This document shows, piece by piece, positions 48,944-60,882 of a stretch of 64,000 nucleotides of DNA. Below the pieces are notes generated by a model. The model searched no databases. It was not told the DNA's origin and saw nothing but the letters and a program-made list of their open reading frames with translations. Source of the stretch: Naegleria gruberi (taxonomy: Eukaryota). The first letter of the stretch is position 1, and each line of letters opens with the position of its first letter. The position numbers and the translations under genes were made by a program. Location of the stretch: the NCBI GenBank assembly GCA_000004985.1, contig GG738846.1, one strand, 5' to 3'.

Positions 48944-50410
48944 TTATTCAGTACTTTCCCAAATATTTGTAGATCCATGATTCATTGTTTCAAAGAAGGA
49001 TTTATCTAATCCTCTCTTCTCCAAATTGCTTTCCAAATCAATCTTTGGTTGCATTATTGGCTCAGTGGTTAAAATGAAAGTTCCCCAGTGCATACCAATT
49101 TGTTTTTTTGATTTGACATCTAGAGCAATCTGTACAGCCTCTTCTGGGTTAATGTGTTGTGGTTTCATCATCCACCTAGGTTCATAAGCTCCAATTGGAA
49201 TAAATGACATGTCAATTGGGCCATATCTATTACCTATTTCTGTAAAACATTCAGAAGAATAACCGGTATCACCAGCAAACCATAATTTGAACTTTCTAAT
49301 CTTTTCTTGTTCAATTGTATCAACATTCTGTACTGTTTCAATGTTATCATGATCTTTGATAAATTGGAATTCAACACCCCAAGATCCCCACAATGCCTCA
49401 TTTTTATCGAAACCTGATCGCAATGACCAATGCTGAGCTGGAAGGAATGTGAAGGTAATATTAGAATCAAATTTCAATTGAGAATCAGTTTTGTGTTTCA
49501 TAGATGTGTTAAAACTAACAGATTTCCACCAATCCAATTCCACTAGTTTCAAACTGCTCAATTCCTTGTGGTTCTTTTCCTGATAAAATTTTTCCATCCA
49601 TGAATATTTCATTCTCAATGGAAGTAAAATTATTGGATCATGATGTTGTTGAATCTTAATGAGTGCATTATAATCAAGGTGATCATAGTGATTATGTGAG
49701 ATAATTATGTAATGAATTGTTGGAAGATTTTCAATATCTATTGGAAGGGGTTTTATGCGTGAAGGACCAAAATATTGTGAAGGACTGCATCTTTCTGAAA
49801 ATACAGGATCTGTGAGAATATTTACACCTCTGTATTGAATTAAAAATGTAGAATGTCCAATCCAAGTTACTTGTGGAGTAACATTATTGTCACCTTTGAC
49901 TGATCGAATATCAGGATTGAATAAAAGATCCGTATTTGGTTTGATTTGTGGAAGTTCTGTATCGGAAGGAATTTGTGGTTTGTTCTTTGCCATTTCTCTT
50001 TGAAATTTTATAACATCCGTTGTAGAAGCTGATTTAAACCCTTCGTATGGATATTGAAATTCAGTTAATTTACCATCATTTTTTACAATCCAATGAGAAG
50101 GTATTGTATTTGAATAGTTATTATCCCTTCTAACTTGTTCTACATAGTGTTTGTATGAATACTTATTTTCCTCCATTTGTTTTTCAATACATGATCCTAT
50201 AATTTGAGTAGTAGTTTCATCATTTGCTGATAAAGATGGTTGTTGATGGCTTGCTTGTTGTCCCATTTTTTCCGAAGGTTCTGTTTTCCTTCCGTGTAAA
50301 CATGTTGTAAAATTGCGTCTTGAAACCATTGTCTTATTGTGAGAATAAATATTTGTCAAGCAGTAGTTGTTGAAAATAATATTATTATTATTGAATTTGC
50401 ACCTTAGCAT
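48944..50410 (-). CDS. NAPEPLD: N-acyl-phosphatidylethanolamine-hydrolysing phospholipase D (NAPE-PLD, metallo-beta-lactamase fold).
   Basis: [68 protein letters not shown]...FAGDTGY...[23 protein letters not shown]...HWGTF is colinear with human NAPE-PLD ([40 protein letters not shown]...[12 protein letters not shown]...FAGDTGY...[23 protein letters not shown]). The start may be ATG at 50410 or the internal MVSRRNF. Confidence 0.85.
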   Translation of the reverse strand: [488 protein letters not shown]

Positions 50411-50788: not shown

Positions 50789-51613
50789 TTATTTACCAAT
50801 ACAGGAAATACACACTCTAATTAATCCTAATATGATACCACAACAACATGCCAGTACAGGTACAGTTACTCCTACCACTATACCTGCAATGGCACCACCA
50901 CTCAAAGGTTCACATCCATCTCTATTCAAATCATTGGCTAATTTGAAAAATCTCGCTCTTTCACAACCAACAAATGATGTAAAAGTTCTTCCCACATAAC
51001 TTTCCATTTGACTTTGAAGACTTTTCCCACCACTAGACCAATAATAACCATTTGTAACACGAATGGCTGGATTGTCACATTGAGATTCATCACAAAAATA
51101 CTTGATTGTTGGATTGAAAACTGTAGTGTCCAAATCAATACTATTCTTCAAGGGACCATTCACATAAATTTGAGTCAACCTTGGTCCAAAAGATTTGTAT
51201 TCATCTGAAATCTTTAGTTTAAAAGTGACTCTCTTATCAGAGGACACTACAAGTATTGTTTCCTTGATTGGAAAATTAATTGCAATCTCAATAGGTTCAT
51301 TATCAAGAGCTTCAGAAACGACAAAATAAAGTACAGCTGGAGCTGCTTGCCAAGGATATAATTTAGATGAAGTTAAATTTGCAGGATTATTCTCTACTAC
51401 AATTGCATCTCCATCAGCAATTTCACATTGGAGGCAGAAAAAACATGGATTTAATACTCCGTATAAAGCTTTTGTAAGTCTTTGATATCCACTTGCTGCA
51501 TAAACAGCAGATAGTACCACAAGCAAACCACAAGTGACGACCCATAAAGTTCTTCTTTTTATCATCATGGCTGATGATGAAATATTGTTGGCTGATACAT
51601 TTAATTGTTTCAT
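50789..51613 (-). CDS. Hypothetical single-pass (or bitopic) membrane glycoprotein with Cys-rich C-terminal TM (CCC cluster).
   Basis: ATG at 51613. N-proximal TM LWVVTCGLLVVLSAVYAA, ectodomain with paired Cys, C-terminal TM AIAGIVVGVTVPVLACCCGIILGLI. Confidence 0.4.
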   Translation of the reverse strand: MKQLNVSANNISSSAMMIKRRTLWVVTCGLLVVLSAVYAASGYQRLTKALYGVLNPCFFCLQCEIADGDAIVVENNPANLTSSKLYPWQAAPAVLYFVVSEALDNEPIEIAINFPIKETILVVSSDKRVTFKLKISDEYKSFGPRLTQIYVNGPLKNSIDLDTTVFNPTIKYFCDESQCDNPAIRVTNGYYWSSGGKSLQSQMESYVGRTFTSFVGCERARFFKLANDLNRDGCEPLSGGAIAGIVVGVTVPVLACCCGIILGLIRVCISCIGK

Positions 51614-51801
51614 TTTTTAATGAAAAGATAAGTTCACAGGTAACGACAAGTATTGTTTAAAAACCGTTTAAAATTGTTCTGACATGTTCAAATGGTCGAC
51701 CTTTCGCAAATTCTTATTAGAAATGATTAAATAGCTTATTGGAAAGTTTATTAAACTTCAAATTTTATAATTGTATCTACAACTTTATCGAAATCAATAC
51801 A

Positions 51802-52221
51802 ATGTATGTGAATTTTGTTGAAACGGAGAGAGATTCTCCTACCAAACTCCTTTCAAATAACAACAAAAAAATGAGCCAACAACAAGAATCGGCACCTCTC
51901 AACGCTTCCTACTATTCTAAAAATCAAGACAATGTTCCGTTTGTGATTAATAGTGATGAAGGAGGATATGAAGTAAATCCACAAATAACAATAGTTGATG
52001 CAGAGAGTGATAAAAAGGCCTTTTGGTTATTTGTGCTCGGATTTCCAATCTTTTTCTTACCGCTGTGGATTGTTTGCTGTATTCTCTATGCCCGATCGAA
52101 GAGTGAAAAGGCAAAGAAATATGGAGTGATGAGTGGATATTTTGTAATTTTTAACTTTGCATTTTGGGTACTGGTGATCCAATTTGTTATCGTTCCTCTG
52201 GCCATGATGTACTCAAAGTAA
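51802..52221 (+). CDS. Small hypothetical membrane protein of about 139 aa from the first ATG, with two C-terminal TM helices.
   Basis: The track's 51739 start is TTG; first in-frame ATG is at 51802. TM helices FWLFVLGFPIFFLPLWIVCCILYA and YFVIFNFAFWVLVIQFVIVPLAMM. Confidence 0.35.
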   Translation: MYVNFVETERDSPTKLLSNNNKKMSQQQESAPLNASYYSKNQDNVPFVINSDEGGYEVNPQITIVDAESDKKAFWLFVLGFPIFFLPLWIVCCILYARSKSEKAKKYGVMSGYFVIFNFAFWVLVIQFVIVPLAMMYSK

Positions 52222-52515: not shown

Positions 52516-53941
52516 ATGGAATTGAAGTCTTTGCCAGTCACCTTGCTTTCTGGTTTCTGTGATACCTCCAAATATGCATTGATTAAAAAAGTTGCTGAAA
52601 ATACCGACAATTTGAAAGTACTCATCTTTGCTTGTCATTTGGAAAAGTGTAAGTTTTGAAAAGCTTGTGGAGAAATTTACCTAGTTGTTGAAAATAGTAC
52701 ATTTGGATGAATCTAAGGTTGAAAAGAAGACTGATGAACAAATCACTTTGAAAAACAAGTGTTTAATTGTCAAATTGACTGATCTTTTCTTTGAACAACT
52801 CAGTGATCATGTATTGTCTAAGGAATTTGATTATTGTCTTTTGGAAACTAATACATATGACGATCTTGAAGGAATGAAGGAAATGTTTTTAACTGATTTG
52901 GATGCTCATGACGAAGAACACGAACACACTGATGAGTGTGAACACTCCGAAACAACCATGAATCAGTTGGCTCCAATTTCTAATATTGCCACTGTTGTTG
53001 ATGCTGCTACTATTGTAAATGATATTAGAACTGAAGAAACTCTTGTTGATAGATTTGGTGAAAAGGTACCAGGTGCTGAAAACAGACATATCCCATTCTT
53101 GATTGTTTCTCAAATTGAAGATGCTAAAATCATTGTTATTAACAATGCTGAAAAGGCCGAAAACATTGAAGAAGTTCAAGCTTTAATTAAAAAGATTAAT
53201 GGAAAGGCCAAGGTCTTTACTGCCAAGAATTGTGATATCAGTCCTAAGGAACTTTTCGGAACTGAACTCTTCTCATTGACTGATTCAAAGAGTCAAGTTC
53301 CATCTTGGTTGAGCGAAATTAAGGGTGAAATTAAGTCTGAAACAATTTCTGGCATTTCAAGTTTTGTTTATAGAAGAAGAAAGCCATTCCATACTGAAAA
53401 GATTTACAAATTCATCTATGGTAGCGACTACTTGAATAAGGAATCAGGAGTCATTAGAAGTAGAGGTTTAATTTGGTTATGTACTAGAAATGATGACTGT
53501 TGTGATTGGAATCATGTTGCTCAAATTGCTGAAATTACCAACGCTGGTAAATTCTTTTCCTCATTAGATGAAGAAATTATTGCTGATTTGGAACCAGAAA
53601 TGGTTGAAGAATTAAAGGCCAATTGTGAAGGACCACACGGAGATAGAAGATGTGACCTTCTCTTTATTGGTAAGAATATGAACCAAAAGGAAATTGAACA
53701 AAAGTTGGATGAATGCTTAATTTCTGATGAAGATTTGGCTAAGGGCCCAACTCACTATGAAACTATGTGCGAAGATGAATTCCCTGAATTTGAAGAGTTA
53801 GATCATTTACTTGAAGATGTTTCTGATGATGAAGAAGATGAAGAAGAAGATAAGGATGCTGATATTGACATTACTTCGACTCCAAAGAGAAAGAGAAACG
53901 ATGACTCCTCAAAAGGTGCCAAAAAGACTAAGAAGGATTAA
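52516..53941 (+). CDS. CobW/ZNG1 (COG0523)-family homolog with degenerate GTPase P-loop and lost CxCC metal motif; acidic C-terminal tail. Two exons, about 52516..52648 and 52698..53941; GTAAGT...AAAATAG intron of 49 nt.
   Basis: SLPVTLLSGFCDTSKYALIKKV matches CobW/ZNG1 [22 protein letters not shown], so the Walker A GxxGxGKT is replaced by GFCDTSKY. NKCLIV replaces the NGCLCC metal motif. FDYCLLETNTYDDL matches FDYILLETTGLADP (conserved). C-terminal CobW_C-like SGVIRSRGLIWL. A TAG at 52682 forces the acceptor to be downstream of the track's TTG start. Confidence 0.6.
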
Positions 53942-54084: not shown

Positions 54085-55475
54085 TTAGTTCAAAAGTGTG
54101 GCTGATTGACCATTTCTATTCATCTTCTTTTCAACACCATAAATGACTCTATCCAATAAGGCACTGACTGTGAAAACACCACCAATAATTGCACACAAAC
54201 TTGTTAAGAATTGTACAAATGACTTCTTATTCTCTGTGATGTGAACCATAATTGGAGAAAGGTCATAGATAAAGAATACACCTGGAACTACATTTGGATG
54301 TAATCTATTCTTTGGTCTAGAGTGTTGAGTTACAGAATATTGATTGGTAATGATAGAATTGGATGAACCATATTTTTCATAAATGGTTGGAACAACCTTG
54401 ACAAAATATTGGAAGAGAGCTGATTCTCCTTCGACACGTTGTCCAGTTTCAGCATTATATCCAATAATCTTACTTGTACCATCCAAAGGATTAATGAGTC
54501 CAGGAATCTTTTCACCAAATCCAAGATAATTGATAATGTGACTAGTATTAAAGTGATCAACCTCATAGTTTGTATAATCATGCATGTGTTGTTGAGCACG
54601 AACAAATGATTTGCCTGGAGCAAAATGGAAATTACCAGCAACCTTATTAACCAAAAAGTAACCATGCAAGTTGCATCCTTCTTGCTTGGAGTATTTCATC
54701 TTTCTTTCCAAAATTTCCTCATAACATTGTTCAATATCTTCGTTTGGAGAGAATGCCCATCCAACACGACGATAAGATTCACGAACATCATCACAAGTGT
54801 TACAACATTGATTAGCATCTCTATTAGATCCGTAGCAACTTCCACAATACTTTGGATCTTTGACTTTCTTTGCTCTCTCAGCACGTATTTTATCCAATTC
54901 AGCATTATTAACTAAATCATGTTTAACAGCACCTGGTGGTGGCTTTAAAATGTCCAAAGTTGGTTTGTCATCAGATACTTGTTCAGCTTGTTGTTCAATA
55001 ATTGGTTTTCCATCCAAAGTTAATCTCATCTTGTAAACAGTGTGGTAGTCGAGATGAACGTGATGTTCTCCACTGACATCCATAACATCCAAATTTAAAG
55101 CATCACAAGAAACAGCAGGGAAGGTAATATTAATATAAATTGGAATTTTACGTTCTTGTTGAGTATCAACATATAATTGATCAAATCTTTCCACTTGTAA
55201 ATACAAATAAAACTCTCCTAATACAAGGATCAAGATGACTAAGAGTGAAATGATAGAGACTGTCCGAATGTAATTATCAAGTAATTTAATTATCACCATC
55301 ATCAAATATTGAATATGATAATGAATTAATAATATCAACAATATTAATAAAAATTGAAATTCAGGTAAGAGATCATATATATTTCCTCCCAAAACTTACT
55401 CAGACCACCTCCCAAAGTCTTGACCCGAAAATCATCCTGTGTTTTTGGATAAAAATCAAAACTTTTTAAACCCAT
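54085..55475 (-). CDS. ERGIC3: ERGIC3/Erv46 ER-Golgi intermediate compartment protein. Two exons, about 55400..55475 and 54085..55259; GTAAGT...CGGACAG intron of 140 nt.
   Basis: Exon 1 MGLKSFDFYPKTQDDFRVKTLGGGL|ISIISLLVILILVL matches human MDALGKLKQFDAYPKTLEDFRVKTCGGATVTIVSGLLMLLLF. Downstream CGSCYG...CCNTCDDVRESYRRVGWAF...GCNLHGYFLVNKVAGNFHFAPGKSF...FQYFVKVVPT are near-identical to ERGIC3 blocks. Confidence 0.85.
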
Positions 55476-55710: not shown

Positions 55711-56764
55711 ATGGAACAACAAAAACAACAAGAAAAAACATTCTCTCCTCTCACACAGAAATATCAACATGTAAATACAATGATTTCTGGTGTCTTTTCA
55801 GGTGCAATTGCAAATTTTGCACTTCATCCACTTGATTGTATAAAAATTAGAATGCAAGCCAATGAGAGAGGAGTTAAAAGGTCAACCTTTGTTGGATTGA
55901 AGGAATCTGCTAAGGTAACAAAGGCTATTTATTTAGAGGAAGGATGGAGAGGATTTTATAGAGGTCTTAGTACAGCCATGGTTGGCTCTGGAACTGCTTG
56001 GGGACTTTATTTTACAATGTATGTGTGTTATTACATTTTCATAATATTTAAATGAAAATAGTTATAATATGCAAAAGCATAATTATGAAAAAGATTTTGG
56101 AGTTAATCAAGTACCTGCTTTGCAGTTGACTTGGTGTGGAGTACAAGCTGGAGTTATAACTAATCTCATTACACATCCAGTTTGGTTGATAAAGACCAGA
56201 TTACAATTACAAAATAATAATACAACAATACCAATATCAGAAGCATCTCATCATTTAGAACAAATCAGATATAATGGACCAATTGATTGTGTTCGTAAAA
56301 TAATCAAACATGAAGGAATCAAATCTCTCTATATTGGACTGACTCCAAGCATGTTACTTGTTTCACATGGTGTAATACATTTTGTTTGTTATGATAGAAT
56401 GAAATCTCTATATTTGAATTATAAGAATGAAAATTCAAATTCCACTCAATACTATCTCAATGGATGGGAATCATTTACACTTGGATTTTTAGGAAAAGGT
56501 GTTGCTGGATTGGTAACTTATCCACTCCAGGTTATTAAAACAAGGCTTCAAGACAAGAGTAACTACTATCACCAAGAACGATATACTGGATTTTTAGATG
56601 CTACAAGAAAAATTTATAGAAATGAGGGATATAAGGCTTTCTTTAGAGGAATTGTTCCTCATGTTTTAAAGGTCTCACCTAATGGAGCAATTGTGTTTAT
56701 GCTAAATGAGCAAATTTTGAAATTATTATTCACAACAGCGGAGAGAAAATTCAAGAATGAATAA
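55711..56764 (+). CDS. Mitochondrial carrier (SLC25) protein, folate/FAD transporter (SLC25A32/Flx1)-like. Two exons, about 55711..56018 and 56062..56764; GTATGT...AAAATAG intron of 43 nt.
   Basis: Three carrier repeats: PLDCIKIRMQ, PVWLIKTRLQ, PLQVIKTRLQ. Junction GLYFT|IYNMQKHNYEKD matches human SLC25A32 GLYFFFYNAIKSYKTE. First ATG at 55711; the track's start is TTG. Confidence 0.7.
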
Positions 56765-56896: not shown

Positions 56897-57823
56897 TTAC
56901 TTCTTAACACTAGAAATTTCAGTACCACCCTTAGCACCAAGCAAGTACTTAATACGAACATAGATAGCGAATTGACCAGCAGTCAAAGCACCAACCATGA
57001 TAATTCTAGGACCGAGACCCAAGAAGAGACCACGTGGACCCAATTCCTTAGCCAAACCAGCCAAACGAGAGGTGATAGAACCTTCAGCACCCTTTTGCTT
57101 GTTGATCTTTGACAACAAGGTATCAGCAGGTTGAGAAATGATGGCAGCACAAGCACCAGCAATCAAACCAGAGCTCAAGTCAACAGCAGTTTGTCCACCA
57201 GTTGACATTTCACTCTTTGGCTTTCCGACCATATTAACAATTTGTTCAACAGCCAATTCGTAAACAACGAACTTAGCCATAGTGTATGGAATTTGCTTCA
57301 ACAAGATTGGGAAGAAACCAGAGTAGAAACCACGGAGGACACCTTCTTCCTTCAACAATCTCATGAAACCACCTAACAAACCATTAGCAAAGTCTGGTTG
57401 AGAGACCAAACGAATACGAGTAGCTTCCAATGGACACAAAGCAATATCAGCAAAGAATTCAGCCAAAGCAGATGAAGTCAAATAGATAGCAGTACGATTT
57501 TCAGAAGCCTTTTCCATACCCAAAGAGTTGACGAATTGCTTCTTGAAGAATTCGTAACCACCAAACTTGAAGGCACCTTGTAAGAAATAACCAGCGAAAG
57601 TTGGACCAACACCAGTCAACAAAGCAGCTGGACCTTGTTCAGAAGCAACTTGACGGAAAGTAGCAGCCATACCTCTGTTGTATTTAACTGGATCCAATTG
57701 CTTGAGGGTCTTGACAACGTCTACAGGTGTGAGGGCACCGTGAGTGAGTGAGCAACACAAAGCTCCAGACAAAGCGAAACGGGCGTACAAGTCAACACCG
57801 GTTGGGGTCTTATCAGCGCTCAT
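56897..57823 (-). CDS. SLC25A3: Mitochondrial phosphate carrier (SLC25A3/Mir1-type).
   Basis: LYARFALSGALCCSLTHGALTPVDVVKT matches YALCGFGGVLSCGLTHTAVVPLDLVKC. SSALAEFFADIALCPLEATRIRLVSQPDFANGL matches ASASAEFFADIALAPMEAAKVRIQTQPGYANTL. IPYTMAKFVVYE matches IPYTMMKFACFE. Confidence 0.9.
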   Translation of the reverse strand: MSADKTPTGVDLYARFALSGALCCSLTHGALTPVDVVKTLKQLDPVKYNRGMAATFRQVASEQGPAALLTGVGPTFAGYFLQGAFKFGGYEFFKKQFVNSLGMEKASENRTAIYLTSSALAEFFADIALCPLEATRIRLVSQPDFANGLLGGFMRLLKEEGVLRGFYSGFFPILLKQIPYTMAKFVVYELAVEQIVNMVGKPKSEMSTGGQTAVDLSSGLIAGACAAIISQPADTLLSKINKQKGAEGSITSRLAGLAKELGPRGLFLGLGPRIIMVGALTAGQFAIYVRIKYLLGAKGGTEISSVKK

Positions 57824-59550: not shown

Positions 59551-60882
59551 TTACTTCTTGGATGGTTCCTTCTTTTCGACGGACTTGATAACACCAACAG
59601 CGACAGTTTGTTTCATGTCTCTGACAGCGAATCTACCCAAAGGTGGATATTCAACGAAACCTTCAACACACATTGGCTTGGTTGGAACAATCTTGACGAT
59701 AGCAGAGTCACCCTTCTTGATCTTTTCTGGGTTAGCTTCTTGAGTCTTACCAGATCTTCTATCAATCTTTTCAATGATAGTTTCGAACTTGCAAGCAATG
59801 TGGGAGGTGTGACAATCCAAAACTGGAGTGTAACCGTTTCTGATTTCACCAGGGTGATTCATGATAATGACTTGAGCATTGAAAGAAACAGCTTCTCTTG
59901 ATGGATCATTCTTAGCATCAGAAGCAACATAACCTCTCTTAATATCAGTGGTGGACAAACCCTTAACGTTGAAACCAACATTGTCACCTGGACCAGCTTC
60001 TGGGACAGAAGTGTGATGCATTTCGACAGACTTAACTTCAGTATCAGCAGCTTGACCTGGAGCAAAGTGAACAACCATACCTGGCTTCAATTTACCAGTT
60101 TCAACTCTACCGACTGGGACAGTACCAATACCACCAATCTTGTAAACATCTTGGAGTGGCAATCTCAATGGCTTATCAGTTGGTCTAACAGGTTCAACCA
60201 AGTTATCCAAAGCATCCAAAAGACATGGTCCCTTGTACCATGGCATCTTATCAGACTTTTCAATCATGTTGTCACCAGTCCAACCAGAAATTGGGACGAA
60301 TTGGACACAGTTTGGCTTACCTTCTTCAGTTTGGAAACCCAAAGACTTCAAGTATCTACCAACTTCAGACTTGATTTCTTCATATCTCTTATCAGAGTAT
60401 TTGACAGATTCATCATCGAACTTGTTCATACAGACAATCATTTGCTTAATACCCAAAGTGTAGGCGAGCAAAGCGTGTTCTCTAGTTTGACCATCCTTGG
60501 AGAAACCAGCTTCGAAACCACCGTTAGTTGAGTCAACAACCAAGATAGCAACGTCAGCTTGGGAAGTACCAGTGATCATGTTCTTAATGAAATCTCTGTG
60601 ACCTGGAGCATCAATGATGGTGAAGACGTACTTCTTAGATTCAAACTTCCAGAGAGCAATATCGATGGTGATACCTCTTTCTCTTTCAGCCTTCAACTTG
60701 TCCAAAACCCAAGCATACTTGAATGAGGATTTACCCATTTCAGCAGCTTCCTTTTCGAACTTTTCGATGACTCTCTTATCAATACCACCACACTTGTAGA
60801 TCAAGTGACCAGTAGTGGTTGATTTACCAGCATCGACGTGACCAATGACGACGACGTTAATGTGTGACTTTTCCTTACCCAT
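59551..60882 (-). CDS. EEF1A: Translation elongation factor 1-alpha; single exon.
   Basis: [81 protein letters not shown]...; full-length colinearity with EF-1alpha. Strongly biased codon usage (GGT, GCT, AAG, ATC, TTC, TAC, TTG, AGA) unlike neighbouring genes, consistent with high expression. Confidence 0.97.

Follow-up and report, generated by a model that had tools for sequence, protein, structure and literature searches.

A motif-deficient paralogue of ZigA-type COG0523 GTPases is maintained in Naegleria

A gene on the plus strand of Naegleria gruberi contig GG738846.1 (assembly GCA_000004985.1), at positions 52516-53941 of the 64,000-nt stretch analysed here (the window), encodes a COG0523 protein in which the motifs for nucleotide and metal chemistry have degenerated. 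We refer to this gene and its orthologues as dead copies and to their intact paralogue as the live copy. The best explanation, which we hold to be probable, is that a ZigA-type GTPase was duplicated, that the duplicate lost its motifs and was selectively kept, and that it now serves as a non-catalytic pseudo-GTPase that binds partner proteins. The window has a GC content of ~32%, is eukaryotic in character and represents N. gruberi nuclear DNA.

Results

The COG0523 architecture is retained and its signature motifs are lost

The protein contains both parts of the COG0523 two-domain architecture, a G3E-type G domain (Pfam cobW, PF02492; 32 bits against a cut-off of 20.7, E = 1e-7, residues 7-218) followed by a CobW_C domain (PF07683; 60 bits against a cut-off of 22, E = 2e-16, residues 264-385). 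The blocks by which the initial annotation had recognised the family, PVTLLSGF, FDYCLLET and a CobW_C-like C-terminus, were all present in the alignment with intact relatives and in the Pfam match. The best NCBIfam model was ZigA (NF038288), covered over profile positions 1-389 of 390 with 219 bits (E = 9e-65); this lies below the equivalog cut-off of 600 bits, and the live paralogue scores 485 bits. Since the dead copy is nested beside ZigA-like eukaryotic proteins in the tree described below, it descends from the ZigA family, though not as a functional equivalog. We place it in the ZigA-like branch (the type of sequence similarity network (SSN) cluster 1 or Haas subfamily 1) and not in ZNG1 proper. 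Of the CobW/ZNG1-family label first given to the gene, COG0523 membership with degenerate motifs therefore stands, and the ZNG1 assignment gives way to the ZigA-like branch. ZNG1, the eukaryotic zinc chaperone of METAP1, belongs to the same COG0523 superfamily and needs catalytic motifs that are missing in the dead copy. Its identity with the dead copy was rejected because the closest relatives are ZigA-like and because only six residues precede the first (PVT) strand, leaving no N-terminal extension. In ZNG1 this extension reportedly binds METAP1.

Motifs were called from an alignment to intact relatives together with an alignment of the four dead-type orthologues, and none of Walker A (GxxGxGK[ST]), CxCC, ExxG, NKxD or PETEEY was matched in the N. 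gruberi protein (Table 1). The degenerate readings first proposed for Walker A and CxCC were borne out by the alignment, which revealed further losses at G3, at G4 and at PETEEY, a motif defined for SSN cluster 1 (PMC13001444). The CxCC motif, situated between switch I and Walker B, has been named as the feature that sets the COG0523 family apart (PMC10642216). Walker A reads GVSDESKS, GISDESKS and GFSDEGKA in the other three orthologues; only G13, D16 and K19 are common to all four, with position 6 being S, S, S or G and position 8 being Y, S, S or A. Judged by these alignments, the former P-loop is degenerate rather than obliterated. The metal site reads GSLLV in two of the other orthologues and NCLVV in the third, and the thiolate triad is gone in all. 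G3 is ETNT, EVDK or NTAT across the orthologues, and G4 is HNLD, NNLD and NNAD in the three besides N. gruberi. In the switch-I region, the NDM of intact relatives is replaced by ACH in the dead copy. The first strand (PVTLLSG), the FDY..E block and most of the C-terminal domain (CTD) are retained.

Both Walker A and CxCC were kept in 401 of the 407 fetched homologues with a complete N-terminus, and both were missing only in the N. gruberi protein (P0001) and its N. lovaniensis orthologue (P0002). Two environmental relatives, P0376 (GFYKTGKS) and P0378 (GFADAGKT), keep a Walker A-like loop and lack CxCC, a partial degeneration opposite to that of the Naegleria clade; COG0523 proteins with missing motifs thus occur outside Naegleria and mycobacteria as well.

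The sole solved structure matched by sequence was E. coli YjiA. An AlphaFold2 (AF2) model built with 82 homologues in the alignment had a mean predicted local distance difference test (pLDDT) score of 89.6 and a predicted template modelling (pTM) score of 0.85, and was uncertain only at residues 111-130 and in the tail from residue ~410. Foldseek comparison to the PDB returned YjiA first (4ixm/1nij, E = 4e-18), followed by the YjiA-like part of Tetrahymena Shulin (6zyx_Y, E = 2e-9), HypB, MeaB and UreG. As modelled, the dead copy retains the family fold, a Ras-like G domain and the CobW_C alpha/beta sandwich.

The gene model is supported by a shared intron

The gene consists of two open reading frames (ORFs), of 47 codons (from the ATG) and 418 codons, which are fused in frame by removal of a 49-nt intron. 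The 458-aa product is identical over its full length to XP_002682744.1 (EFC50000.1, NAEGRDRAFT_77978, UniProt D2UZV5), which is annotated 'predicted protein'. The intron, part of the gene model from the outset, thus agrees with the public annotation, and its position and phase are kept in all four dead orthologues and in the live paralogue. It lies in phase 1 at the codon just after the switch-I region in all four, measuring 235 nt in N. lovaniensis and 38 nt and 258 nt in two environmental contigs (L002 and L007, respectively). The live N. lovaniensis paralogue has a 69-nt intron whose codon and phase correspond exactly (within NDMAE-L-NID). The common phase-1 intron of live and dead genes indicates that the duplication was DNA-based and that the intron is genuine. 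A second intron, of 142 nt in N. lovaniensis (L001) and 143 nt in L007, separates RSK from G within the RxKG motif; the equivalent site (53456-53467) is uninterrupted in N. gruberi and L002, which points to intron gain or loss within the genus.

As the gene model rests on prediction, the true transcript might use another exon that restores GxxGxGKT and/or CxCC, a possibility that the initial annotation had raised and that we consider barely conceivable. In exon 1, the degenerate P-loop comes right after PVTLLSG, a conserved strand, and each of its columns aligns with the canonical P-loop; KCLIV sits within the long exon 2, and three other species show this arrangement as well. Six-frame scans found no P-loop-restoring exon: GxxxxGK[ST] was absent within ~1 kb on either side of the gene, GxxGxGK[ST] was absent from the entire window, and there was no in-frame CxCC near the gene, where CHCC at 52987, the single match, lies in another frame.

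Dead copies are found in four Naegleria lineages beside a live paralogue

Four dead-type orthologues with intact ORFs were recovered, from N. gruberi, N. lovaniensis and the two environmental Naegleria-like contigs, the gene models outside N. gruberi being rebuilt from recovered DNA. The N. lovaniensis orthologue (C9374_010753; 472 aa) is ~51% identical to the N. gruberi protein and an environmental ORF from the Joint Genome Institute (P0003) is ~54% identical; the motifs of both are equally degenerate. A profile search of 1.84 billion representatives returned, beyond the cluster representative, a single additional dead-type sequence, P0259, which is a fragment of 144 aa. This fragment led to ENA contig L007, on which a fourth orthologue is complete, with 471 aa and 83% identity to that of N. 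lovaniensis. In L007 and in N. lovaniensis alike, the dead copy is followed downstream by the same CBS-domain gene.

The initial annotation had suggested looking for a second, intact CobW gene elsewhere in the genome, and one is present: NAEGRDRAFT_69138 (P0005) has GFLGAGKT, GCICC, ESTG and NKTD. Orthologues of this live copy are present in N. lovaniensis, N. fowleri and Willaertia. In a neighbour-joining tree, a simple method in which long-branch effects are possible, the dead clade formed a long branch with 100% bootstrap support and was sister, at 86%, to the live heterolobosean clade; both fall inside ZigA-like eukaryotic and bacterial sequences. A scan of metagenome contigs with the dead-clade alignment found only distant relatives (22-26% identity).

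Two side observations concern these searches. A homologue search with the L007 orthologue missed the N. gruberi protein and the exact ORFs of its own contig, probably because the acidic low-complexity tail saturated the word index. In the live N. fowleri protein (P0123, FDP41_001525; 432 aa), '...ESTGISEPIQV' runs straight into 'SQIRALIQKLNPEA', so that a segment of ~150 residues that includes NKxD and is present in the N. lovaniensis orthologue (547 aa) is missing; this gap probably stems from exon skipping or mis-splicing in the gene model and is unlikely to be biological.

The dead copies evolve under purifying selection

The ratio of nonsynonymous to synonymous substitution rates (dN/dS, omega) was estimated by the Nei-Gojobori method with a custom script, rather than by codon-model fits. 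For the close pair, N. lovaniensis and L007, dS was 0.485 and dN 0.088, giving an omega of 0.18 (bootstrap 0.13-0.25). By region, omega was 0.15 and 0.21 for the halves of the G domain and 0.17 for the CTD. Deep pairs, which are saturated (dS ~1.5), gave 0.25-0.28. The check by dN/dS across orthologues that had been proposed for this gene thus returned values well below 1. Together with the degenerate motifs and the retained G-domain fold, this selection fits the profile of a pseudoGTPase.

Constraint on the live and dead proteins was compared as protein identity between N. gruberi and N. lovaniensis. In the G domain, identity was 71-81% for the live pair and 43-44% for the dead pair, and in the CTD it was 67% and 62%, respectively. 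Constraint was loosened mainly in the G domain and hardly in the CTD. The catalytic motifs are gone and the protein as a whole has evolved ~2.7 times faster than its live paralogue (distances of 0.81 and 0.30), as would be seen in a neutrally drifting duplicate that happens to be open. Such a decaying pseudogene is nevertheless very improbable: ORFs of 458-472 codons are intact and splice sites conserved in four lineages at 50-83% amino acid identity, omega in the close pair stays at or below 0.32 in every region, the dead G domain included, and the protein has been detected by mass spectrometry. The initial annotation's view of a maintained dead paralogue is upheld by these data.

The protein is made and increases with an intracellular metal chelator

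Expression had been named as a further check, and the protein is detected in published whole-cell proteomics. In their supplement, Ženíšková et al. 2022 (PMC9035749) report label-free measurements in triplicate after 72 h of growth with 5 uM neocuproine or 25 uM bathocuproinedisulfonic acid (BCS), relative to a control with 25 uM CuSO4. For XP_002682744.1, the neocuproine column of N. gruberi gives a fold change of 3.97 (p = 0.0036). This column runs from 'IC' entries to numeric entries and back to 'IC' entries, and XP_002682744.1 stands in the first numeric block, which by the layout of the sheet is 'UPREGULATION in copper deprived condition'. The dead protein is made, and is ~4-fold more abundant with the intracellular metal chelator. 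In the BCS copper-deprivation list of the same supplement (DataSheet1.xlsx), an N. fowleri COG0523 'cobalamin synthesis protein p47k', NF0104760, is given for one condition only (IC). A full-text literature search with the accession numbers and with Naegleria/CobW found nothing on the N. gruberi gene, whose proteomic entry was found only in a supplement.

Features of the dead clade: loop, tail and RxKG motif

The EHEH..C core of a His/Cys/acidic loop (Table 1) is invariant in the four dead orthologues, is absent from the live Naegleria paralogues and follows the former switch-II strand. Its pLDDT of ~62-66 in the AF2 model marks it as a flexible loop. At the same loop position, P0124, an intact eukaryotic ZigA-like protein, carries a His-rich EEEEHSHQHSSKHD, and a ZigA-like protein of Andalucia godoyi ends in a poly-His C-terminus (P0124 and P0129 are the eukaryotic relatives with His-rich stretches). 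Comparison of these proteins suggests that the loop site is a favoured spot for auxiliary metal-binding inserts.

The C-terminus ends, as had been described earlier, in an acidic tail followed by a TPKRKR...KKTKK basic patch. (S/T)TPKRKR is invariant in the four orthologues and is followed by a second basic cluster, KK(T/S)K. By eye, the monopartite import consensus K-K/R-x-K/R is matched in all four and a bipartite one in three. The tail is possibly a nuclear-import signal, in which case the protein would be targeted to the nucleus.

RxKG is the only invariant CTD motif in COG0523; it lies on strand beta-2 and supplies an arginine finger that can work in trans (Rocchio et al. 2026, PMC13001444). 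All four dead orthologues have the Arg and the Gly, and three also have the Lys, which is replaced by Arg in N. gruberi.

Genomic neighbourhood

The genes neighbouring the dead copy are functionally unrelated (Table 1). The ORFs just upstream, at 50789-51613 (-; 274 aa) and 51739-52221 (+; 160 aa), had no Pfam match; the latter has hydrophobic stretches that are apparently membrane-spanning, and both may be lineage-specific genes or mere partial exons. No tRNAs or tandem repeats were found in the window.

Table 1. Coordinates of the dead copy, its motifs and neighbouring genes in the window
Feature	Position	Strand	Description
Exon 1	52516..52648	+	133 nt; residues 1-44 and first base of codon 45; holds the degenerate P-loop; spliced translation is XP_002682744.1
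Walker A / G1	52552..52575	+	GFCDTSKY, aligned to GFLGAGKT; residues 13-20
Intron	52649..52697	+	49 nt, GTAAGT...TAG; phase 1; interrupts the Leu45 codon
Exon 2	52698..53941	+	Residues 45-458; TAA stop
Metal site	52757..52771	+	KCLIV, aligned to GCICC (CxCC); residues 65-69
Walker B / G3	52844..52855	+	ETNT, aligned to ESTG (ExxG)
His/Cys/acidic loop	52907..52945	+	HDEEHEHTDECEH; core E-H-E-H-x-[DE]-[EN]-C, residues 118-125
G4	53141..53152	+	NNAE, aligned to NKxD
ZigA-cluster motif	53336..53353	+	SETIS-G, aligned to PETEEYG; one-residue deletion
RxKG 'arginine finger' of CTD	53456..53467	+	RSRG; RSKG in the other three orthologues
Acidic tract	53816..53869	+	DVSDDEEDEEEDKDADID; predicted disordered (model)
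TPKRKR-x8-KKTKK basic cluster	53879..53935	+	Resembles a nuclear-localisation signal
Metallo-beta-lactamase-fold protein ORF	48944-50410	-
ERGIC/ERV41-46-type ER vesicle transporter ORF	54085-55392	-
Mitochondrial carrier gene	56069-56764	+	Convergent with the following gene
Mitochondrial carrier gene	56897-57823	-	Convergent with the preceding gene
eEF1A-like translational GTPase ORF	59551-60882	-

Discussion

We propose that a DNA-level duplication of a ZigA-type COG0523 zinc-metallochaperone GTPase occurred in the lineage leading to Naegleria. The duplicate has lost G1, G3 and G4, which serve GTP and Mg binding and hydrolysis, together with CxCC, which binds zinc, and the linker/CTD motif PETEEY. 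Purifying selection has kept this dead copy in at least four Naegleria lineages, with a CTD nearly as constrained as that of the live copy. GTP-driven chaperoning of zinc insertion would no longer be possible, and the protein would instead bind other proteins through the conserved CTD, with the G domain as a scaffold. It could act as an adaptor or regulator in the metal-limitation response by a logic akin to that of mycobacterial Mrf, and the EHEH..C loop might sense metal with low affinity. The most likely function is that of a non-catalytic adaptor or regulator tied to metal limitation and possibly nuclear.

Several observations weigh against this proposal. The presumed loss of activity is read from the protein sequence. 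K19, G13, D89 and the Arg of RxKG are retained, as is E94 in three of the four orthologues, and the N. lovaniensis P-loop, GVSDESKS, is one substitution short of GxxxxGK[ST]; a structural nucleotide ligand, as in Shulin, would therefore be compatible with the sequence. Neocuproine altered hundreds of proteins, and the dead protein is missing from the list for BCS, an extracellular chelator. The proteomic control was supplemented with copper, and the direction of the change was taken from a position in a flattened spreadsheet. The confidence of the AF2 model is partly inherited from the live homologues that dominate its alignment. Finally, no dead-type orthologue from N. fowleri or Willaertia surfaced in three homologue searches, which were word-indexed and non-exhaustive, so that this absence is uninformative.

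The retained residues bear on the idea that the dead copy is a non-canonical nucleotide binder, in which GTP, ATP or another nucleotide serves as a structural or allosteric ligand between G domain and CTD in the manner of Shulin, perhaps with slow, atypical hydrolysis. In its favour, all four orthologues conserve the Lys and the first Gly of Walker A, the RxKG Arg is invariant and the Lys of that motif present in three, and purifying selection on the dead G domain is still clear (omega 0.15-0.21). The second-best structural match is Shulin, whose YjiA-like module holds a structural GTP between C1 and C2. We nevertheless judge this idea rather unlikely. The Mg-coordinating Ser/Thr is Y, A or S depending on the orthologue, the Gly preceding the Lys is Ser in three of four, and an invariant Asp occupies the anion hole; the G3 glycine and the NKxD Lys are gone in all four, and the NKxD Asp is also gone in N. 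gruberi. Such variation is not expected at positions needed for binding.

The invariant RxKG Arg could also be put to use elsewhere, if the dead CTD docked on the live G domain of NAEGRDRAFT_69138 and acted either as a GTPase-activating protein (GAP) in trans, supplying the arginine finger, or as an inhibitor or decoy that blocks the live CTD. Retention of this Arg in all orthologues, a dead CTD nearly as constrained as the live one, and the coexistence of both paralogues in N. gruberi and N. lovaniensis would fit such a role. However, rescue in trans was specific to the cognate CTD, and CTD diversity has been proposed to prevent crosstalk (Rocchio et al. 2026, PMC13001444); the dead and live CTDs are just 46% identical, N. 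gruberi has Arg in place of the catalytically essential Lys, and the nuclear-import-like tail is invariant only in the dead clade, which may point to another compartment for the dead copy, even though the live copy of N. gruberi has a basic C-terminal cluster of its own (KKKNQKKK). Weighing these points, we find regulation of the live copy in trans quite unlikely. Similarly doubtful is a more specific picture of a nuclear metal-responsive regulator, in which the metal site moved from CxCC to EHEH..C and the CTD acts in trans on the live paralogue (as GAP or anti-GAP) or recruits a nuclear client under metal scarcity. If true, it would make the dead copy a eukaryotic counterpart of Mrf and a natural split of CTD function from GTP hydrolysis in COG0523.

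Degenerate COG0523 relatives and pseudo-GTPases are already known kinds, and comparison with them helps to place a dead copy kept for partner binding. With the ZigA-type proteins (NF038288), including NAEGRDRAFT_69138, it shares full-length homology, the two-domain fold, the phase-1 intron, the PVTLLSG strand, the FDY..E block, the GDRR and RxKG regions and an acidic C-terminus. It differs from them in its degenerate Walker A, CxCC, ExxG, NKxD and PETEEY motifs, in a much faster G domain and in having gained the invariant EHEH..C loop and the TPKRKR...KKTKK tail. The closest functional precedent would, by analogy, be the mycobacterial Mpy recruitment factor Mrf (Rv0106), a COG0523-like protein without canonical Walker A or CxCC (Haas 2009) that senses zinc and brings a hibernation factor to ribosomes, as an adaptor and not an insertase (PMC7431043). 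Both are degenerate COG0523 relatives kept without the canonical motifs, the function of Mrf having been shown and that of the dead copy being deduced. Mrf is bacterial, stands in a Zur-regulated operon and has the ribosome as its client. The dead copy reached 82 bits on the Mrf family model (NF047431) over residues 129-408 only, against a cut-off of 375, which indicates an independent origin.

In the C1-C2 part of Shulin/DNAAF9, the COG0523 (YjiA-like) two-domain fold is likewise reused in a eukaryote as a structural protein-binding module. Shulin, in contrast, has ~1100 aa with an Spt16-like N-terminal half (N1-N2-M), a C3 finger and a structurally bound GTP, whereas the dead copy is a stand-alone protein of 458 aa. 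Membership in the Shulin/DNAAF9 family was rejected: only the YjiA-like part is present, and the match to Pfam DAAF9_2 (E = 0.06) was not significant. In other pseudoGTPases, such as those of p190RhoGAP (pG1/pG2), AAGAB and septins, the G fold is also kept with degenerate G motifs and a presumed protein-protein interaction; these are of Ras-like, septin or other classes and not G3E/COG0523. A literature search found no paper on a eukaryotic G3E/COG0523-derived pseudo-GTPase of this type.

The role of the COG0523 CTD is unclear and the clients of nearly all members are unknown, and in this respect the dead copy is a natural experiment: selection dropped the GTPase and zinc chemistry and kept the CTD almost as constrained as in the active paralogue. 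The impact is limited by a clade that is apparently confined to Naegleria and by a function that is deduced. Within these limits, a probable G3E-class example joins the list of pseudo-GTPases, and the gene is a candidate marker of metal limitation in the genus to which the pathogen N. fowleri belongs. The dead copy could be used to test whether an arginine finger acting in trans between paralogues is used in vivo, and its partners could show what the CTD of the ZigA branch binds.

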